From Patescibacteria group bacterium UBA3531 (GTDB taxonomy: Bacteria > Patescibacteriota > Minisyncoccia > Phycocordibacterales > UBA3531): a DNA stretch of 64,000 bases. The translations under genes were made by a program, and so were the position numbers. The notes beneath the pieces were generated by a model, which was not told the DNA's origin, made no database searches, and saw only the letters and a list, made by a program, of their open reading frames with translations. The stretch covers positions 1,018 to 65,017 of the forward strand of contig DFOW01000004.1 in assembly GCA_002376885.1 (NCBI GenBank). Direction: 5' to 3'. Of the stretch, positions 581 to 63,014 are shown piece by piece (position 1 is the first letter of the stretch; every line of letters starts with the position of its first letter).

Positions 581-887
581 TGGCTCCGCGGGCAGGACTC
601 GAACCTGCAACCAATACGTTACATCGATCCTATTGTTTCTAATAGGGATGGACTATATCATCATCCTTCCAATTATGATTAGGATGCAAGGCGCTTCGAC
701 CCCAAAATTGGGGGCTACTCCCGTAAGGGATAGTCTCTGAACCTTCCAAATAAAATCTGGCTTGGCTGCTGATTACCATCGTCTTCACGTTACGGCTTCC
801 AGCAATTCACCTTGTTTTTCAACCTACGTTTCCGTAGAAAGCTGCGTATCGCCACAGCGTACTGCTCTACCATTGAGCTACCGCGGA
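581..887 (-). tRNA. tRNA-Asn(GUU) interrupted by a group I intron in the anticodon loop (5' exon 854-887, intron 622-853, 3' exon with encoded CCA 581-621)
   Basis: Minus-strand 5' exon TCCGCGG-TA-GCTC-AATGGTA-GAGC-A-GTACG-CTGT. The 3' exon TAA-CGTAT-TGGTT-GCAGG-TTCGAGT-CCTGC-CCGCGGA-G-CCA completes the acceptor, D, anticodon and T arms. The spliced anticodon loop is CUGUUAA, i.e. GUU. The exon ends in U and the intron ends in G. Confidence 0.75.
622..853 (-). ncRNA. Group I self-splicing intron (232 nt) inside the tRNA-Asn gene
   Basis: On the minus strand it contains group I core elements P-like AAUUGCUGGAAG, Q AAUCAGCAG, R GGUUCAGAGACUA and S GAUAUAGUCC. The internal guide sequence GCAGC near the intron 5' end pairs with exon GCUGU, with a U.G wobble at the splice site. 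The terminal nucleotide is G. Confidence 0.7.
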
Positions 888-5728: not shown

Positions 5729-6037
5729 TTATTTTCTTCCCCATCTGTCTTTGTCTCTTCCGTGACACTTATCCATTACACGTTTAAATCCTTCGTCAAG
5801 ATCTAAATCAAGAGAATTAGCAAGACAACATAATGTAAAGATTATGTCAGCCGCCTCGTCTTCAAGCTCTTTAATGTCCTCTGTATCCTTTTTCTTTTTT
5901 GGACCAAACCGGTGATTTATCTCGCGCGCAAGTTCTCCTGTCTCTTCAGTCAGTCGTGCCATTATTTCGAGAGGTTTCCAATACCCTATCTTAATTTGTT
6001 GTACCCATTCTTCTACCTCTTTTTGATGTTCCTTCAT
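5729..6037 (-). CDS. MazG-like nucleoside triphosphate pyrophosphohydrolase
   Basis: EETGELAREI...EDEAADIIFTL EExxE/D motifs of the MazG/NTP-PPase fold. Confidence 0.75.
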   Translation of the reverse strand: MKEHQKEVEEWVQQIKIGYWKPLEIMARLTEETGELAREINHRFGPKKKKDTEDIKELEDEAADIIFTLCCLANSLDLDLDEGFKRVMDKCHGRDKDRWGRK

Positions 6038-6252: not shown

Positions 6253-7089
6253 TTATTTGTCTCCATACACAAGGGCACTTGCCTCTTTTACAATGTTTCC
6301 GGCAATTGCCTCGTTGATTTCGTATTGCTTAATAAGCTCTTGGGCAGAGTGAGGAACAATGTCCTGTGCGAGCATCATATTAAATTTAGCGAGCTTTTGA
6401 AGTGAATCTTTATCTATTGAAGGAAGTACCGTAACAGGGTACAAAACATGCTCGCTAATAATTTTAGCGAGACTATCTTTCCCTGGGTAATCCCACCCGG
6501 TCATTTTAATGCCTCTACACTTGCCGTACGTGATTGCCTTACTGGTAAACTTAGTGTTGGTGATGAGCCACATTGAGTGTGTTGCTTGTTCTCGTTCTTT
6601 TACCTCTTGCAGGCGATAAATATCTTCAAGACGGGCATCTGCATACATAGTGGTATCAATATGAATTTTTGCACCTCGCATATTATGATATTTTGCTTCA
6701 ATTAAATAATGATTACCGTCCTTTTTTGCGATAACATCTATCTCGTGAGGAACACACTCACCTTCCATCATTACATTTCGTTTTGTCGTGTACCCCATGC
6801 TTTTAAGTATGACCTCTAGAAATTGTTCAAATAAAAAGCCAGCAGGACCAAGTTCCCGCATTCCTTTTTTTAAATTGTAACGGCCCGCAACATAAAGGTT
6901 CTCTTTTACCAAGTACTGTGAAGCGCGACGAAAAATTTCGGACGTTGTCACTCCTGGCTCAAGCTCTTTCTCTACCGTAGAACACACCGTCCCAACTAAT
7001 TTCTCGGGAGCACCAGCGTCTCGCAAAGATGAACAAAACTTATCTTTACTAAAATTTTCCTCTTCTCCCGTGTCTTTTATGACTTTCAT
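6253..7089 (-). CDS. ATP-cone domain fused to an Mrr-like restriction-endonuclease-fold domain
   Basis: N-terminus MKVIKDTGEEENFSKDKFCSSL is ATP-cone-like. The C-terminal part has a PD-(D/E)xK-like core (HEIDVIAKKDGNHYLIEAKY). Confidence 0.55.
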   Translation of the reverse strand: MKVIKDTGEEENFSKDKFCSSLRDAGAPEKLVGTVCSTVEKELEPGVTTSEIFRRASQYLVKENLYVAGRYNLKKGMRELGPAGFLFEQFLEVILKSMGYTTKRNVMMEGECVPHEIDVIAKKDGNHYLIEAKYHNMRGAKIHIDTTMYADARLEDIYRLQEVKEREQATHSMWLITNTKFTSKAITYGKCRGIKMTGWDYPGKDSLAKIISEHVLYPVTVLPSIDKDSLQKLAKFNMMLAQDIVPHSAQELIKQYEINEAIAGNIVKEASALVYGDK

Positions 7090-17282: not shown

Positions 17283-17520
17283 CAAAAAACGGGACTCTCT
17301 ACAAGGAGGCAAGGTTAAAGGCCCGGCCGCCGAAGCGAACCGGGCCTTCTTCAACCTGAGAGTGCTCCAGCCGGAGCAGTTAGACGTGTCAGTGACATCC
17401 TTTGGCGTGAGGGTAGCCACATCGGGCCTCTCCACTTGCAGCCGGTCTCAGGCGGGGATGGTTTGAGACAACGAAGCCGGTTGAACCACCACCCTGCACG
17501 TGCTGGAAGCAGTCTAACAA
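17283..17520. other. GC-rich (~60%) ORF-poor intergenic island; candidate structured ncRNA or decayed GC-rich cassette
   Basis: Sharp GC jump between two AT-rich minus-strand genes. The minus strand has a GC hairpin (ggcccgg...ccgggcc) followed by a U-run. Internal direct repeats GGAGCAGTTAGAC and GGAAGCAGTCTAAC are present. Confidence 0.3.
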
Positions 17521-17570: not shown

Positions 17571-18344
17571 CTATTTGACCGGGTCAAGCTCTATCCCTAC
17601 TGGGCAGTGATCACTACCCAAAACATAATCTAGTATAAAAGCGCTTTTGAGATTCTTTTGCACATCAGGGCTCGTAATAAAATAGTCTATTCTCCACCCC
17701 ACGTTGCGGTCTCTGGCACGACTCTTCATATCCCACCAGCTGTAAGCATCACGTCTGTCAGGGTAAAAATGCCGAAAGGTATCAATATAGCCAGCGGCCA
17801 TAAGCTCATCAAACCAGGCGCGTTCTTCTTCCCGGAAGCCTGCCCTGCCTTCGTTTTCTTTTGGGCGGGCCAGGTCAATCTCTTCGTGGGCAACATTTAA
17901 ATCCCCACACATTACCACCTTGTGACCCTTTTTACGGAGTCCTTCCATAAATTCTAAAATCGCATCGTTGTATTCGAGCTTCATAGGAAGACGTTCTTCC
18001 ATACCACTGTTTGGAAAGTAACAGTTTATGAGTACAAAATCTTTAAAATAAGCAACGAGTGTTCGTCCTTCGTCATCAAATTTTTTAACACCAAATCCTT
18101 TTTCTACCCTCTCGGGTTTTATTTTTGTATAAATAGCAACGCCATTAAACCCTTTACGTTTTTTTGTATGGTCAAAATATCCGGTGTAGCCGTCGGGATT
18201 CTTTAATTCATCTACCAAATCCACTTCTTCTGCCTTTGTTTCTTGAAGACACAAAATATCGGGACTGTCGTCATATAACCAATCCAAAAATCCATTTTTG
18301 TGAGTCGCCCGTAACCCATTCACATTCCAAGACAATATTCGCAT
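17571..18344 (-). CDS. xthA: Exodeoxyribonuclease III
   Basis: MRILSWNVNGLRA...QETK N-terminal and GSDHCPV C-terminal motifs. The longer upstream extension in the ORF track is GC-rich and probably not translated. Confidence 0.9.
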   Translation of the reverse strand: MRILSWNVNGLRATHKNGFLDWLYDDSPDILCLQETKAEEVDLVDELKNPDGYTGYFDHTKKRKGFNGVAIYTKIKPERVEKGFGVKKFDDEGRTLVAYFKDFVLINCYFPNSGMEERLPMKLEYNDAILEFMEGLRKKGHKVVMCGDLNVAHEEIDLARPKENEGRAGFREEERAWFDELMAAGYIDTFRHFYPDRRDAYSWWDMKSRARDRNVGWRIDYFITSPDVQKNLKSAFILDYVLGSDHCPVGIELDPVK

Positions 18345-18435
18345 GAACTCGATTATACCAGACAAACTTGCAATAAAGGCCCTAGTTATATAAATTGGAT
18401 ACGGACTGGCAATCATGCCTGAAAGGAGCAGTACC

Positions 18436-18903
18436 GTGCAGGAGCACACCCATTCGTGGTCTGGCACCCAGATCGAAGGTTTCCGGCTGGTTGCCGGAGC
18501 AGAGATCCGAGGTACCGACCGCTACGATTCCTCGACGGGCAAGTGGGAGCCTCCGCCCCCTGCTGTCGGCCGCAACATGGACGACCCCTACGATCGGGGC
18601 CTCACCCTCGAGGAAGGGTGCCCGACCATGTGGATTCGTCCGGAGCTCTCCGACAACACGAAGGAGCTTCTCATGCTCCTCCGAGCGCGGCTTCTCGACA
18701 TCCATGAGAAGAGCATGACGGCTACGCGTCTCCCGATCGGGAGGTGGGAGCAGTATCCCGTCCCCAGCCGAGAGAGCGTGCAGGAGCTTCGTGACTGCGG
18801 GCTCGTCGCCCCCTACCAGGGCAAGACCTACGAGACCGAGTTCACGACGGTTCTCCGCCTGACGGAGCTCGGAAGGGAGACCGCCGAAGGACTCCTCTCC
18901 TGA
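18436..18903 (+). CDS. GC-rich cassette gene: hypothetical protein (GTG start after SD AAGGAG)
   Basis: About 62% GC. Upstream is TTGCAA...TATATA. It is followed by the hairpin terminator ggccccggccgcg...cgcgccggggcc. Confidence 0.45.
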   Translation: MQEHTHSWSGTQIEGFRLVAGAEIRGTDRYDSSTGKWEPPPPAVGRNMDDPYDRGLTLEEGCPTMWIRPELSDNTKELLMLLRARLLDIHEKSMTATRLPIGRWEQYPVPSRESVQELRDCGLVAPYQGKTYETEFTTVLRLTELGRETAEGLLS

Positions 18904-18912
18904 TCAACCAGA

Positions 18913-18953
18913 GGCCCCGGCCGCGTTCACACGCGCCGGGGCCTTTCATTTTT
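18913..18953 (+). terminator. GC-hairpin terminator (copy 1 of a duplicated terminator)
   Basis: ggccccggccgcgttcacacgcgccggggcc followed by tttcatttttg. Confidence 0.6.
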
Positions 18954-19044
18954 GTTGACAATATATTTTTTATATTGTAATTTTTTTTCAGGTGTACACG
19001 CGACGCAGTCGAGAGACACTGTCGCAAAAACACAGGAGCAAATC

Positions 19045-19698
19045 GTGTCTAGAAAAAACCTTGGACTGGACGTTGGACAAGCTCAGGAGCTCAAGCTTGC
19101 CTTCAGGCGTCATGATTGGGACAATGAGCTCATCAAGCGACTTTGCGAATCGAATATCCTGGGCGACGCCCTCGACATCCTTCGTGGAGACGCGCAAGCC
19201 GTTCCGATCGAACGTGTCGTCGACCTTGGAGCGGAGCCTGAGATCAAGGACGGTAGTGTGGTCGTCAAGCACGTGAAGCAGGGGGTGAAGCCTTGGCGCG
19301 ACATTCGTCTCGCCCTCATCGACCCCAGGGATCTGCACTACACCAGACTGGGGATCCCTTACGACCAAGAACCGCCTGATCAGAGGATCATGGAGATCAA
19401 CCCTCGAACCATGAGGCCACACTTCCTGAAGGGACAGCGCCCAGCGAACATCCTCATGAGGGATTTTCTCCTCGAGATCCCTCATCTGATCCCTCACGAC
19501 TGGGTCCCCAGGGCCCCAATCGTGTTCTGGGGGACGGTCTGCAAGAGCGATACCACCTACTGGGTTCCCGGGATCAACCAGGACTTCGGCGGGTGGTACG
19601 CTCACGATTGCCGGGTGGAGATGCCTCGCGATCGCATCATGCTCCGTAACTACGACAACCCCTGCGTCGTCCTGACGTCGGCACCGTCGATTGTCTGA
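19045..19698 (+). CDS. GC-rich cassette gene: hypothetical protein (GTG start after SD CAGGAG)
   Basis: About 60% GC ORF followed by a near-identical copy of the 18913 terminator. Confidence 0.45.
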   Translation: MSRKNLGLDVGQAQELKLAFRRHDWDNELIKRLCESNILGDALDILRGDAQAVPIERVVDLGAEPEIKDGSVVVKHVKQGVKPWRDIRLALIDPRDLHYTRLGIPYDQEPPDQRIMEINPRTMRPHFLKGQRPANILMRDFLLEIPHLIPHDWVPRAPIVFWGTVCKSDTTYWVPGINQDFGGWYAHDCRVEMPRDRIMLRNYDNPCVVLTSAPSIV

Positions 19699-19709
19699 AG
19701 TGTTCTGAT

Positions 19710-19750
19710 GGCCCCGGCCGCGTTCATGCGCGCCGGGGCCTTTCGTTTTA
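19710..19750 (+). terminator. GC-hairpin terminator (copy 2)
   Basis: ggccccggccgcgttcatgcgcgccggggcc followed by tttcgtttt. Confidence 0.6.
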
Positions 19751-19765
19751 CTATTATTCCCCTAG

Positions 19766-19891
19766 CACAACTTTCAAAAGAGCTCTCGGAGCCCGAGCGG
19801 GCCGGTGTCCCGCTTGCAGGACGAGCGAGGGTGAGAGCGAGCAAAAAATCCCCGCTGGGGGATTTTATTGCGTGTCTTTTGAAAGTTTGTG
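19766..19891 (+). repeat. MITE-like GC-rich repeat, copy A (TIRs CACAACTTTCAAAAG ... CTTTTGAAAGTTTGTG)
   Basis: Shares the core AGAGCTCTCGGAGCCCGAGCGGGC...GAGCGAGGGTGAGAGCGAG plus a 3' hairpin/T-run with copies at 34582, 45986 (inverted) and 49193. Confidence 0.65.
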
Positions 19892-19898
19892 CAAAACC

Positions 19899-21212
19899 CT
19901 AGTAACTCAAAAGCCTCTTCGCCTTCTCATGTGTCCTAATCTTCTCATGCGCCTTTGCTTCAATTTGCCTAATTCGCTCTCGGGTCACTCCAAACTCCTG
20001 CCCCACTTCTTCAAGCGTTCTCATTACCCCATCGTTTAATCCATAACGCATTTCAAGAATCTTTCTTTCTTTTGGTGAAAGGTCTCCTAAGATTTCACGA
20101 ATCTGATCTGCCAAAATTCTGCGGGCACTTTCATTATCGGGTGACAAAATTTTATCGTCTGGAATAAATTCTCCCAGTGTTGATTGTTCGTCTCCACTAT
20201 CCCCCACCGGCTTTTCGAGCGAGATGGTTGTTTGATTAATCTTTTCAATCTGATGAACCTTTTCTACTTCAATTCCCATTTCAGTTGCAACTTCCTCAGG
20301 AAGCGGTTCGCGTCCCAAGTCTTGCGACAATCGCCTTACAATTTGCTTATACTTTGCGATGGTTTCAACCATGTGCACGGGAATTCGAATGGTTCGAGAT
20401 TGATCGGCAAGTGCCCGGGTAATACTTTGCCTGATCCACCAGGTTGCATACGTTGAGAACTTAAATCCTTTGGTGTGATCAAACTTCTCTACCGCCTTAA
20501 AGAGCCCCAAATTTCCCTCTTGAATAAGGTCAAGGAGCGTAAGATCGGGACTCCTACCAATGTATTTTTTAGCGATAGAAACCACGAGTCTCAGGTTGGC
20601 TTTAGCGAGCGCTTTTCGTGCTTCATCGTCCCCTTCTAAAATTTGCTTTGCAAGATCTTTTTCATCTTTTGCACTAATCAATTTATATTGACCGATTTCT
20701 TTAAGGTACATTTGCACAGAGTCAAGAGATGGATCACCTTGTGGCAAATTCTTTAGAATATCATCTTTGTCATCGCCATCAGTATCGAGATTAATAAATC
20801 CACCCGATTCTAAAACATCAATTTGTGCTTCGCTAAATCGTTCATAAAGTTCCTCTAAAAAGAGGATATTATTCTCTACATCTGGGAATTCTTTTAAGAG
20901 CTCACTGTAAGTAACAAATCCTCTTTTTTTACCACGCCTAATAAGAGCGTCTGCTTTTGACTCAAGATCCTCCTTCTTTTTTGAAACACGTCTTGTTGCT
21001 TTTTTTGTGGTTTTTTTGGCAACCTTTTTCTTAGCTACTTTTTTGGTTTTTGTAGCTTTTTTTGTTGTTTTTTTAGCTACTTTCTTTTTTGAAACTTTTT
21101 TTAATGCCTTTTTTTTACTTGCCCGTCCGGTCGCCGGGCTTGTTTTTTTAGCCACCTTTTTTCGGGTGGTTTTTTTAGCCTTCTTTTTAGTTGTCTTCTT
21201 TTTTGCTGGCAT
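19899..21212 (-). CDS. rpoD: RNA polymerase sigma-70 factor RpoD with an N-terminal lysine/alanine-rich (histone H1-like) tail
   Basis: Regions 1.2-4 are conserved. The first ~75 aa are KKTT/AKK repeats. Confidence 0.9.
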
Positions 21213-33839: not shown

Positions 33840-33915
33840 TGGAATGCCCGGCTGGATTCGAACCAGCGACCTTCACGTTGGCAACGTGACGCTCTTGCCA
33901 CTAAGCTACGGGCAT
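33840..33915 (-). tRNA. tRNA-Gly(GCC), CCA encoded
   Basis: Cloverleaf: ATGCCCG acceptor, anticodon loop TTGCCAA, T-loop TTCGAAT. Confidence 0.85.
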
Positions 33916-33929
33916 CCATGAGAAAGAAG

Positions 33930-34003
33930 TGGCTCCCCCGGTTGGAGTCGAACCAACACCTTCGCCCCCACAGGGCGATGCTCTGCACTGAGCTACGGGG
34001 GAG
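33930..34003 (-). tRNA. tRNA-His(GUG), CCA encoded
   Basis: Anticodon loop CTGTGGG, D-arm GCTCAGTGCAGAGC, T-loop TTCGACT. Confidence 0.8.
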
Positions 34004-34102: not shown

Positions 34103-34306
34103 ATGCGCTGGGCAAGCCAAACTGTTTCAGATGAAGAGCGGGATGCGCTCGATGCAGCGCTTCACGCAACCGAAGGTCTCGGTGAAGACGATCTGTCGAC
34201 GAAAAACATGAGGCGTGCAATGTTCGTTCTGCTCATTGTCGCTGCTCTCGTGATTGGACTCGGCGTCATCAAGCCGGCACTCGAGAACGGTGGATCATTC
34301 CTGTAA
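34103..34306 (+). CDS. GC-rich cassette gene: small single-TM protein
   Basis: MRWASQTVSDEERDALDAAL...FVLLIVAALVIGLGVI with SD GGAGG. About 60% GC. Confidence 0.4.
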   Translation: MRWASQTVSDEERDALDAALHATEGLGEDDLSTKNMRRAMFVLLIVAALVIGLGVIKPALENGGSFL

Positions 34307-34317
34307 AGGAGGGCCAA

Positions 34318-34524
34318 ATGTTCCGAGCAAAGACTAGCAACCCCAATGAATGGGGCTGGGGCGGGGGCAGGTACGCCGACTACGAGGAAGAAGAGCCGTT
34401 CTACCTCGTGGACGCCGTGATCGTTCTCGTTGCGGTGTGCGCATACGGCGTATGGTGGCTCATCTCTACGCCGTTCAAGAAGGCGCGTGCCGCCATCGTC
34501 AACCGCCGCGCGCGGAACTGCTAG
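34318..34524 (+). CDS. GC-rich cassette gene: small single-TM protein
   Basis: MFRAKTSNPNEWGWGGGRYADYEEEEPFYLVDAVIVLVAVCAYGVWWLI. About 62% GC. Confidence 0.4.
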   Translation: MFRAKTSNPNEWGWGGGRYADYEEEEPFYLVDAVIVLVAVCAYGVWWLISTPFKKARAAIVNRRARNC

Positions 34525-34581
34525 CCAAAGGGCGCGAACGTTCATTCGTTCGCGCCCTTGCTGTATATTTTCCAACGTTAC

Positions 34582-34690
34582 GTTTTTAAGAGCTCTCGGA
34601 GCCCGAGCGGGCTGGTATCCGCAGGATGAGTGAGGGCGAGAGCGAGAAAAAAATTCCCGCCGGGGAATTTTATTTCGTGTCTTAAAAATG
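34582..34690 (+). repeat. MITE-like GC-rich repeat, copy B
   Basis: AAGAGCTCTCGGAGCCCGAGCGGGCTGG...GAGTGAGGGCGAGAGCGAG plus the aattcccgccggggaatt hairpin. Flanked by inverted TTTTTAAGA. Confidence 0.65.
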
Positions 34691-39591: not shown

Positions 39592-39658
39592 TTAAAAAAT
39601 AAAATAAATAGTAGCGGCCCGGGCCCCGTGTGGGGGCCTCGGGCCGCGCGATGACGCT

Positions 39659-39850
39659 CTAGGGCGCCTTTCCCTTCTCCTCGGGCGGAGTCTGTTGTGC
39701 GGAGCCCAACGGCTCCACACCCTCCGGGTGATCGTCTTCGAAGGACCCCTCGCGGCGCCCGTCGAATGGGCGCGCTTGCCGGGACGGCATGGGATCTCTC
39801 GGCGGCGACTTTTCGCGAGGGCTACCGCCCCCGTTTCGAACAAAAGACAT
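39659..39850 (-). CDS. GC-rich cassette gene: small Gly/Pro/Arg/Glu-rich disordered protein
   Basis: About 66% GC. SD GGAGG lies 10 nt upstream of the ATG, with an upstream TTGCAG-17-TTTAAT promoter-like site and a downstream GC hairpin plus T-run on the minus strand. Confidence 0.35.
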   Translation of the reverse strand: MSFVRNGGGSPREKSPPRDPMPSRQARPFDGRREGSFEDDHPEGVEPLGSAQQTPPEEKGKAP

Positions 39851-43778: not shown

Positions 43779-44009
43779 ATGCCCAAACGATCCAAGTGGG
43801 GCTCGACCTGCCAAATCCCACACTGCGGAAAGAACGAAAACCGAGACCATGTCCGGATGACATTCTTCCGGAGGGGGGCCGGCGTAGTCTTCTTGTTTCT
43901 CTGCAGATGGCATCGGGCCATGAACACTCGAGCAATCCGCGAGAAGCGCGACTTCGGTCCGTTCATGTACACCGGTCGGGATAAGAGCCCGTCGCGCCAA
44001 GCTGCGTGA
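43779..44009 (+). CDS. GC-rich cassette gene: small Cys/His-containing protein
   Basis: About 60% GC with SD GAGGAGGG. MPKRSKWGSTCQIPHCGKNENRDH... It is inserted between dnaE and thrS and ends with a GC hairpin. Confidence 0.4.
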   Translation: MPKRSKWGSTCQIPHCGKNENRDHVRMTFFRRGAGVVFLFLCRWHRAMNTRAIREKRDFGPFMYTGRDKSPSRQAA

Positions 44010-44032
44010 CGGGCTCCGCCCTTTTTGTTACT

Positions 44033-45985: not shown

Positions 45986-46113
45986 CACTAACTTTCAAAA
46001 GATACGAAATAAAATTCCCCAGCGGGAATTTTTTTCTCACTCTCACCCTCGCTCATCCTGTAAAACAGGACACCGGCCCGCTCGGGCTCCGAGAGCTCTT
46101 TTGAAAGTTGTGT
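45986..46113 (-). repeat. MITE-like GC-rich repeat, copy C (inverted orientation)
   Basis: The reverse complement matches copy A nearly end to end, including the TIRs CACTAACTTTCAAAAG / CTTTTGAAAGTTGTGTT. Confidence 0.65.
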
Positions 46114-46246
46114 TAGGAAATAAAAAGTTTATTAGCATCCACAGGAGATTTGCTTGGTTAAAAAATCTCCGAGGATAGAGCGAGTCTCCGCCGGAGAGAC
46201 GAGCGTCTGGTAAACTTTTTATTTACACAACACACTCTCAAAACAA

Positions 46247-62494: not shown

Positions 62495-62523
62495 TTGACA
62501 AATATATACAAATATGCTATTAT
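62495..62523 (+). promoter_or_regulatory. Consensus sigma-70 promoter (TTGACA-17-TATTAT) driving a GC-rich two-gene cassette
   Basis: Perfect -35 and near-perfect -10 about 60 nt upstream of SD AAGGAGA and the GTG start. Confidence 0.5.
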
Positions 62524-62585
62524 AAGGGTAGAAACATAGGGAAAGGCATTGTGCCTCCCCTACTGCTCACCACAAGGAGAACATC

Positions 62586-62828
62586 GTGCACTACGAAACG
62601 TTCGTTCGCGACCTGAAGACCAACGAGCTCAACATCGCCGGGCTCATCTTCACTAGCGTGCTCTTCGTGACCTTCGGCCTGATCTACTGCTCCGGCGGCG
62701 CCGCCTTCCTGCCCATCATCATGTTCGGCGCACTGGCGGCCACGATCGCCCTCGGCGAGCTCCGCTACAACAAGAAGCTCCACGAGAAGTGGTTCAAGCA
62801 CGCCAACGAGGGCACGATCTGGACCTGA
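62586..62828 (+). CDS. GC-rich cassette gene 1: small two-TM protein (GTG start), paralogous N-terminus (M-HYETFV)
   Basis: About 60% GC. SD AAGGAGA lies 6 nt upstream of the GTG. TM helices LIFTSVLFVTFGLIY and FLPIIMFGALAATIAL. Confidence 0.45.
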   Translation: MHYETFVRDLKTNELNIAGLIFTSVLFVTFGLIYCSGGAAFLPIIMFGALAATIALGELRYNKKLHEKWFKHANEGTIWT

Positions 62829-62852
62829 TCACACCTGACAGGAGATGAGACC

Positions 62853-63014
62853 ATGGAGACGTTCGTTGACCTCTGGTCGTCCTACGCCATCTGCTACGCT
62901 ATCGGGTTCATGCTCTTGGTTCGCCCGAAGCTTCCGGCAGGTAGCGTCTGGATCAAGGTGTTCTACGGATCGCTTCTGGTCTTCTCAACCGTCGCGTTCC
63001 TACACCAGACCTAA
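62853..63014 (+). CDS. GC-rich cassette gene 2: small two-TM protein (METFVD...), paralog of gene 1
   Basis: SD AGGAGA upstream of the ATG. Shares the ETFV N-terminal motif with the upstream ORF. Followed by the terminator aaagccacttcactcgaagtggcttt plus a T-run. Confidence 0.4.
   Translation: METFVDLWSSYAICYAIGFMLLVRPKLPAGSVWIKVFYGSLLVFSTVAFLHQT

Follow-up and report, generated by a model that had tools for sequence, protein, structure and literature searches.

A clade of diversity-generating retroelements (DGRs) restricted to Patescibacteria is already known, and most of its targets are unannotated (PMC8144416; PMC11661182); the variable region (VR) domains published for such elements have been described as systematically of the C-type lectin (C-Lec) type (PMC8144416). 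As for the way in which a single gene may come to lie in a genome, the nearest described systems are small genomic islets and target-duplicating insertions, be they integrative elements flanked by att repeats or insertions associated with repetitive extragenic palindromic (REP) sequences. Here we analyze a locus that bears on both, in a 64,000-nucleotide stretch (the window) of the AT-rich genome of UBA3531, a marine member of the Patescibacteria (candidate phyla radiation, CPR). Two GC-rich open reading frames (ORFs), called here ORF1 and ORF2, stand in tandem between xthA and rpoD, each followed by a nearly identical hairpin. The reading that we favor, with a probability of about 0.65, is that positions 18396 to 19749, approximately, form a lineage-specific and compositionally alien insert in a variable rpoD-xthA slot, made of two unrelated genes that would be transcribed independently, and that the hairpins are alike as direct repeats arising from the insertion of the ORF2 unit.

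The window has a GC content of 0.42, and its long ORFs have a median GC content at third codon positions (GC3) of 0.35. Over positions 18400-19800 the GC content reaches 0.58-0.65, versus 0.35-0.45 in the flanks, and GC3 is 0.79 in ORF1 and 0.72 in ORF2, versus 0.35-0.40 for xthA, rpoD and dnaG. An earlier note, made from the letters of this DNA and referred to below as the original prediction, had proposed two GC-rich genes here, and both are borne out by reading of the sequence: ORF1 (18436-18903, plus strand, 155 amino acids) and ORF2 (19045-19698, plus strand, 217 amino acids) start with GTG behind a Shine-Dalgarno (SD) sequence AGGAG, located at 18424-18428, 7 nt upstream, in ORF1, and at 19034-19038, 6 nt upstream, in ORF2. 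Their codon usage is alike, rich in C at third positions (C3) and with A at third positions (A3) as low as 0.07 and 0.10, respectively. With GC and GC3 far above those of the flanks and of the neighboring genes, the segment is indeed compositionally alien.

The slot that holds the two genes differs between relatives. Among 80 related loci, dnaG-rpoD synteny was found wherever the upstream flank was long enough, and ORF1 and ORF2 were present in none of these 80 neighborhoods. In the closest relative (locus L102, RpoD 82%), the order is rpoD, ZIP-like gene, xthA; the slot gene there encodes a 254-amino acid ZIP-like membrane protein and is co-oriented with its neighbors, and no remnant of it was detected in the window. 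Absent from all 80 neighborhoods, and replaced by a ZIP-like gene in the slot of the closest relative, the two genes are not part of a conserved core of the lineage, which is in keeping with the insertion first supposed. Empty-site variants were sought among contigs with an identical RpoD and discarded: all seven, from several marine samples, carry the insert. A phage or plasmid origin was likewise not supported: tblastn gave no match in INPHARED phages, and IMG/VR yielded no relative of the ORF2 family. Homologues of ORF2 lie in a different context in each genome examined.

The two hairpins are central to the argument. Copy 1 (18913-18954, plus strand; the left direct repeat) has a 13-bp GC stem with one bulge and a loop UCAC, followed by TTTCATTTTTG; copy 2 (19710-19749, plus strand; the right direct repeat) has the same stem and a loop that differs by 2 nt, followed by TTTCGTTTT. 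Both follow the pattern GGCCCCGGCCGCGTTCA(CA/TG)CGCGCCGGGGCC, also expressed as GGCCCCGGCCGCG-N6-CGCGCCGGGGCC, with a T-rich tail, 9-11 nt past each stop codon. This 31-nt pattern has exactly two matches in the window (18913-18943 and 19710-19740), and it turned up neither in 100 shuffles nor in viral contigs or the 174 other loci from Patescibacteria; it thus does not appear to be a common motif of the genome, as the original prediction implied. When the T-run is included, the repeat measures 40 nt, of which 37 are identical (93%), the differences being two loop bases and one base of the T-run. Both copies fold to -32.5 kcal/mol (z -5.6 and -4.7), and U-rich tracts (TTTCATTTTT and TTTCGTTTT) lie directly 3' of the stems. 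Pattern search, repeat alignment and folding thus confirm the predicted layout of tandem genes that each end in a near-identical hairpin and T-run, with a copy of a miniature inverted-repeat transposable element (MITE) next. Both hairpins are putative Rho-independent terminators: they share with this class a GC-rich 13-bp stem-loop after the stop codon, a T-rich run and a very stable fold, and a strict consensus terminator scan omitted them because their T-runs are interrupted. Unlike usual members of the class, the two lie at a distance of 797 nt from each other, share 93% of their 40 nt even though the genes before them are unrelated, and form direct repeats that bracket one gene unit.

What the copies bracket is the ORF2 transcription unit alone, from the -35 hexamer to the stop codon. 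They are separated by 757 nt; only 2 nt remain between the left copy and the -35 hexamer, and the right copy begins 11 nt after the ORF2 stop codon. A comparison of upstream with downstream flanks in 56 loci of the ORF2 family gave two outliers, the window (score 31) and locus L014 (score 43), while 168 mismatched pairs used as controls averaged 8.4 and did not exceed 13. L014 is the complete chromosome of Patescibacteria UBA2103 (CP174360), where an ORF2 homologue with 46% identity is flanked by an HU gene and a tRNA gene. The repeat there (5842-5890 and 6647-6695) is 49 nt long with 47 identical positions, both differences falling in or beside the loop; it holds a bidirectional terminator whose sequence is wholly different from that of the window hairpin. 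It stands just before the -35 hexamer and again after the gene's own terminator, with 756 nt between the copies. In both genomes, the distance from the left copy to the -35 hexamer is 1-2 nt. These two independent loci suggest that single-gene units of the ORF2 type may insert directly on the 3' side of a terminator, which is duplicated in the process. The most likely history would be that ORF1 was present first, with its own terminator, that the ORF2 unit came to lie directly behind this terminator by an insertion that duplicated about 40 nt of the target, and that a similar event took place independently at a different terminator in UBA2103. The two hairpins would then be alike because both are direct-repeat copies bracketing the ORF2 unit. 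The locus resembles small genomic islets and target-duplicating insertions in its alien composition, its variable slot, its direct repeats and its absence from relatives. Unlike these, the insert is only about 757 nt long and has neither integrase nor transposase, and what is repeated is an entire terminator, 40-49 nt long and different in sequence in the two genomes.

ORF2 belongs to a sizeable family: the protein collection yielded 77 homologues, and 133 loci were found among species-representative genomes; the named records are nearly all from Patescibacteria/CPR, a few stand under other bin labels, and none is annotated. Alignment A1 splits the family into the subfamily of ORF2 (P0001-P0011, 46-55% identity) and a larger group of proteins of about 190 amino acids, which end in FFWGTVYRxxxGxLxVRxLxWxxGRWxWxxxWLxxxWxxxxPAAVRAS. 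The hypervariable positions of this C terminus hold N, D, G, S, Y, C, H, R and F, and the last 41 codons are the VR of a DGR in many other Patescibacteria. In 21-22 of 80 loci the homologue is followed, 0.9-1.5 kb downstream, by an Avd gene (minus strand) and a reverse transcriptase (RT) gene (plus strand), and the gene order in the DGR-type relatives is target, template repeat (TR), avd, RT. In the five VR/TR pairs first checked, each 123 nt long, all of the 13-20 mismatches fall at TR adenines; when the scan was widened to 63 parsed loci, 15 of them proved to have TR-like repeats, in which TR adenines account for at least 80% of the mismatches.

ORF2 itself matches verified DGR targets, such as P0069 in L010, at E 1e-15 to 1e-21. 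No RT or Avd was found in the window by tblastn with the L010 proteins, nor any TR-like repeat of the ORF2 3' end across its 64 kb; moreover, in alignment A1 the C terminus of the ORF2 subfamily lacks the N/D/G/S/Y/C pattern, that is, it has no VR signature, and RT was not found in the five other loci of this subfamily that were examined. ORF2 can be classed as a putative DGR-less member of a DGR-target family, on a branch that would have lost diversification or never had it. The product is most probably a binding protein of fixed specificity, and the gene has retained the control hairpin of the family in its 5' untranslated region (5'-UTR). Compared with the variable proteins of 'DGR clade 2' (Roux et al. 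2021, PMC8144416), ORF2 is homologous, with 33-40% identity over about 75-85% of its length, and shares domain order, leader hairpin and codon bias. It differs in the missing VR signature, in the lack of TR, Avd and RT over 64 kb, and in that neither its predicted fold nor the 77 family members show a C-Lec match. The AlphaFold2 (AF2) model of ORF2 (mean predicted local distance difference test score, pLDDT, 85.8) starts with a three-helix unit and is rich in beta structure in its middle and C-terminal parts; it gave no fold match in PDB or BFVD, C-Lec included. The CLec, FGE and DUF1566 models of Pfam matched none of the 77 members even at E<=1, and the only signals among them were weak and N-terminal (ScsC_N in 31; DUF771, HTH_17, MerR_1 and Phage_Nu1 in a few). 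ORF2 had no match in Pfam, PHROGs, PADLOC or NCBIfam.

High GC content is a feature of this family at large. In 57 of 63 loci, GC content is higher in the family gene than in its flanks (mean 0.556 versus 0.474), and the rise is limited to the gene. In 13 of 13 DGR cassettes, the GC3 of the target is 16-38 points above that of the RT and Avd genes of the same cassette, also when the VR is excluded; the C3 of these targets is about 0.43 and their A3 about 0.11. Codon selection for high expression, or avoidance of adenine, are two ideas that might account for it.

Upstream of ORF2, comparison of leaders points to a promoter at 18955-18983 (plus strand; TTGACA, 17 nt, TAATTT) with a predicted transcription start site near 18990, and its position is kept in the subfamily homologues L004, L013, L014 and L182. 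Just 5' of the SD sequence lies the family-specific 5'-UTR hairpin (18997-19028, plus strand; covariance model R1, 35.1 bits, E 3e-5), which in the window consists of an outer stem GCGAC (19000-19004)/GTCGC (19021-19025), an internal loop, an inner stem GTC/GAC and a GAGA loop. Its form in the family is GCRAC, 3 nt, GTTC, loop, GAAC, 3 nt, GTYGC, directly 5' of the SD sequence. In an alignment of 40 sequences, 96% of cells pair and six of nine pairs show double changes, a covariation that no shuffle matched; as the seed was picked by eye, the pairing figure is inflated, and the independent test is the specificity scan, in which the matches proved specific to this gene family across 1.66 Mb. 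Over 982 kb, plus-strand matches at E<=1 fell directly upstream of a family gene in about 53 loci, with one off-target match, on the minus strand (E 0.33). Over 675 kb of unrelated Patescibacteria DNA, the single match was a new homologue locus outside the seed, at the expected place. Because plus-strand scores exceed minus-strand scores and the loop varies from 3 to 12 nt, an RNA element fits better than a dimeric DNA operator. Rfam (4227 covariance models) has no relevant match at E<=10 in this region of the window, and none at the gathering score in 13 homologue loci. In the larger, DGR-type subfamily, an extra conserved leader element, GCCATAGCAG...CTGCTATGGCAAACC(hairpin)GAGCCCGCTGGCA, precedes the common hairpin about 60-130 nt upstream of the gene (L015, L017, L018, L024, L026, L045, L067 and other loci), and it too matches no Rfam family at the gathering score. 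One of these comparison loci, L015, from Patescibacteria, also has a LOOT RNA at 139-258 (RF03000, 64.8 bits).

ORF1 is unrelated to ORF2: paralogy was considered and rejected, the BLASTP comparison giving E 0.6. It seemed to be an orphan in a word-indexed search, which returned only ORF1 itself, but a full HMMER scan of 1.84 billion representatives gave 40 homologues of 142-165 amino acids, aligned end to end at E<=1e-3. They make up a sparse and unnamed family of proteins of about 150 amino acids. In alignment A2 the residues H6, G21, D28, Y30, G35, W37 and R68 are invariant; the N-terminal motif of the family reads HxHPxSG..G.RL.PGA....D.YDSS.G.W, and the C-terminal one HPECVQEL.D.G.L...VY.LT..G. 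The AF2 model (pLDDT 89.6) shows an N-terminal beta domain of about 65 amino acids, then a MarR-like winged helix-turn-helix (wHTH). The C-terminal 90 or so residues superpose on MarR-family chains (MarR, ZitR, AdcR and PefR; Foldseek probability 0.9-1.0, E 0.04-0.3), and the weak sequence matches of ORF1 in PDB are all to wHTH proteins. ORF1 differs from MarR-family regulators in that the Foldseek E values are only 0.04-0.3, in that it has an extra conserved N-terminal beta domain (HxHPxSG...DxYDSSxGxW), and in that it has no MarR match in Pfam or NCBIfam; indeed, ORF1 matches nothing in Pfam, PHROG, PADLOC or NCBIfam, and ORF1 with 29 aligned relatives gave no Pfam or NCBIfam match, MarR models included. 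If the modeled fold is right, ORF1 probably binds nucleic acid. Its candidate promoter (18368-18396, plus strand; TTGCAA, 17 nt, TAAATT) is a weak 8/12 match read from the sequence. In two loci with ORF1 homologues (L093 and L094), the gene is solitary and compositionally ordinary, on contigs of 55-57% GC. Transfer from a GC-richer genome is the best reading for ORF1, because its family does not have the high-GC trait in its own genomes.

Several points weigh against the insertion that we propose. High GC3 is a codon trait of the whole ORF2 family, so the GC richness is no proof of a recent transfer of ORF2; and since only one relative, L102, keeps xthA next to rpoD, gain and replacement in the slot are indistinguishable. 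Flanking repeats were seen in two of six ORF2-subfamily loci, and none were found in L004, L013, L006 and L182. No mobility gene is present in the insert, a target duplication of 40-49 nt fits no well-known transposition mechanism, and no mechanism is known that would yield one in the absence of a recombinase. A consensus promoter scan called neither the ORF1 nor the ORF2 promoter. Finally, the loop TTCACA and the tail TTTC.T.TT of the window hairpin are common to the own terminator of the L014 homologue, and the repeated hairpin might be the terminator of the ORF2 unit copied upstream, rather than that of ORF1.

Three other explanations were weighed. The original prediction saw in the reuse of one terminator a duplicated or modular two-gene cassette, and this did not hold up: the two proteins are unrelated, no ORF1 relative was found in the 90 other ORF2-family loci by tblastn and profile search, and each gene has its own promoter-like site and terminator. 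In a more functional form, ORF1 and ORF2 would be one acquired module, a winged-helix regulator with its effector, for example for defence or resembling a toxin-antitoxin pair, moving as a unit, the shared terminator reflecting a common design. Adjacency, common orientation, near-identical terminators and very similar C3-rich codon usage would suit such a module, as would the predicted DNA-binding fold of ORF1 and the palindrome in the ORF2 leader, a possible operator. We nevertheless hold it to be very unlikely, since ORF1 homologues are missing from all 90 of those loci and solitary in L093 and L094, the leader is kept in about 53 loci without ORF1, the DNA that parts the genes has a strong terminator and a separate promoter, and neither gene has a PADLOC match (0 defence or toxin-antitoxin families at E<=1). 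It is conceivable, too, that no recent transfer took place, both genes being native, vertically inherited and lineage-specific, with GC3 and a strong promoter, leader and terminator shaped by selection, such as for very high expression, and the terminators kept alike by local gene conversion. High GC3 is indeed intrinsic to the ORF2 family in any host (57 of 63 loci, 13 of 13 cassettes), the window has no fewer than four other small genes that are GC3-rich and end in GC hairpin terminators, and the insert is fixed in the seven population contigs. Against this, both genes are absent from 80 related rpoD neighborhoods and the closest relative has a different slot gene; ORF2 homologues change context from genome to genome, ORF1 homologues show no excess of GC in their own genomes, and rpoD and dnaG of the window stay at a GC3 of about 0.35. 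We consider a purely native origin quite unlikely.

The hairpins could instead be sites of recombination or mobility, either REP-like sequences from a GC-rich donor or att- or dif-like sites, the ORF2 unit being a circularizable cassette that entered by recombination. That the direct repeats enclose an entire minimal gene, -35 hexamer to stop codon, that L014 has the same geometry, and that family genes are single GC-rich units in unrelated contexts would all agree with this, as would the concentration of differences between copies in the central loop, like the spacers of recombinase sites, and the hairpins preceding the left end of all three MITE copies. Yet only two copies exist in 64 kb, with none in 174 other loci or viral contigs; the repeats of the window and L014 are wholly different, which makes a dedicated site-specific system less plausible; no recombinase was recognized next to the locus; and position and T-runs suit ordinary intrinsic terminators. 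Nor do integrons offer a model: attC sites span 57-141 nt with an R''/L''-L'/R' arrangement, whereas the hairpin is a 31-nt near-perfect palindrome with neither GTTRRRY nor RYYYAAC, and, unlike integron cassettes, each ORF has a promoter-like site of its own (intI was not searched for). This explanation is unlikely. A broader form of the insertion that we propose remains speculative, and we regard it as doubtful: ORF2-type genes in general would be minimal self-contained mobile units (promoter, leader hairpin, ORF, terminator) that insert 3' of intrinsic terminators with a 40-49-nt duplication, an undescribed type of non-autonomous cassette, and the family would be a DGR-diversifiable binder on a non-C-Lec scaffold, with an N-terminal three-helix domain resembling a helix-turn-helix that autoregulates through the 5'-UTR hairpin.

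On the left of the insert, xthA (exodeoxyribonuclease III, 257 amino acids) occupies 17571-18344 on the minus strand (Pfam Exo_endo_phos, E 3e-32; orthologue in L102), with a candidate extended -10 element, TGgTATAAT, read at 18352-18360 on the same strand. The antisense overlap of ORF1 with a 5' extension of xthA, on which the original prediction had built, is an annotation artefact. The Exo_endo_phos domain starts at residue 4-5 of the form that begins at ATG 18342-18344, the 65% identical L102 orthologue likewise begins MRILSWNVNG, and other pipelines call the 257-amino acid form; the extensions to 281 or 298 amino acids over ORF1 are thus over-calls and, as the true start is ATG 18342-18344, ORF1 and xthA do not overlap. 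A 205-amino acid antisense ORF at 18988-19605 is called in place of ORF2 in some contigs. An equally long open antisense frame exists in half of the ORF2-family genes, and the frame of ORF2 has 77 or more homologues, so that the antisense ORF is a shadow of ORF2. It had been taken for a likely artefact of GC skew; the artefact stands, and its cause is codon periodicity in GC3-rich DNA, not skew. The intergenic DNA at 17300-17500, which lies between xthA and the DUF8173 gene and is rich in GC (0.60), has no Rfam match and no similarity to L102, and may be an unrecognized small RNA.

On the right, rpoD (437 amino acids; Pfam sigma-70 regions) lies at 19899-21212 on the minus strand, convergent with ORF2, with its stop codon at 19899-19901. 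A MITE-like palindromic element (copy A, 19753-19892, not assigned to a strand) fills the gap between the T-run of terminator 2 and this stop codon. The element is non-coding and about 140 nt long, has terminal inverted repeats (TIRs) of some 17 nt, contains a hairpin that resembles a bidirectional terminator, and folds as a long hairpin (-64 kcal/mol, z -4.6); further copies lie at 34561-34683 (copy B) and 45986-46128 (copy C), and the three aligned copies are 78-92% alike. 'CCCTAG' was dismissed as a target-site duplication of copy A, since homology among the three copies runs past the left TIR. A stem-loop occurs about 8-20 nt from the left end, in the orientation of the MITE, of all three copies, which hints at hairpin-adjacent MITE insertion. 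A second palindromic element with related ends (46099-46243) adjoins copy C.

Elsewhere in the window, at least four further small GC3-rich genes with GC hairpin terminators were noticed. A second GC3-rich mini-island (34103-34683) holds ORFs at 34103-34306 (67 amino acids) and 34318-34524 (68 amino acids, GC3 0.81), neither with a Pfam match; a GC hairpin terminator (about 34527-34560) is next and then, directly, MITE copy B, a layout that matches that of ORF2, terminator and MITE copy A. It adjoins two tRNA genes (33843-34002). The small genes at 39600-39850 (minus strand), 43779-44030 (plus strand) and 62496-63014 (plus strand), with GC3 of 0.70, 0.71 and 0.94, each have an SD sequence and a GC-rich hairpin terminator, and the gene at 62586 has a promoter TTGACA-17-TATTAT and an 80-amino acid membrane protein as its product. 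These genes point to a class, spread over the genome, of small genes with a composition of their own. A group I catalytic intron is located at 629-863 (minus strand; Rfam RF00028, 89 bits).

For annotation, two gene-calling artefacts, the 5' extension of xthA and the 205-amino acid antisense ORF, can be removed, and two 'hypothetical' genes are given a context. The covarying 5'-UTR hairpin, with no Rfam entry, represents an undescribed leader RNA motif. The locus opens an unnamed Patescibacteria family that has both DGR-hypermutated and fixed members and no detectable C-Lec signature, and whose C3-rich codon usage is decoupled from that of the host genome and even from that of the RT and Avd genes beside them in one cassette. 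Were the bracketing seen in the window and in L014 general, terminator-bracketed insertion would explain how single accessory genes are shuffled in tiny symbiont genomes without mobility genes.

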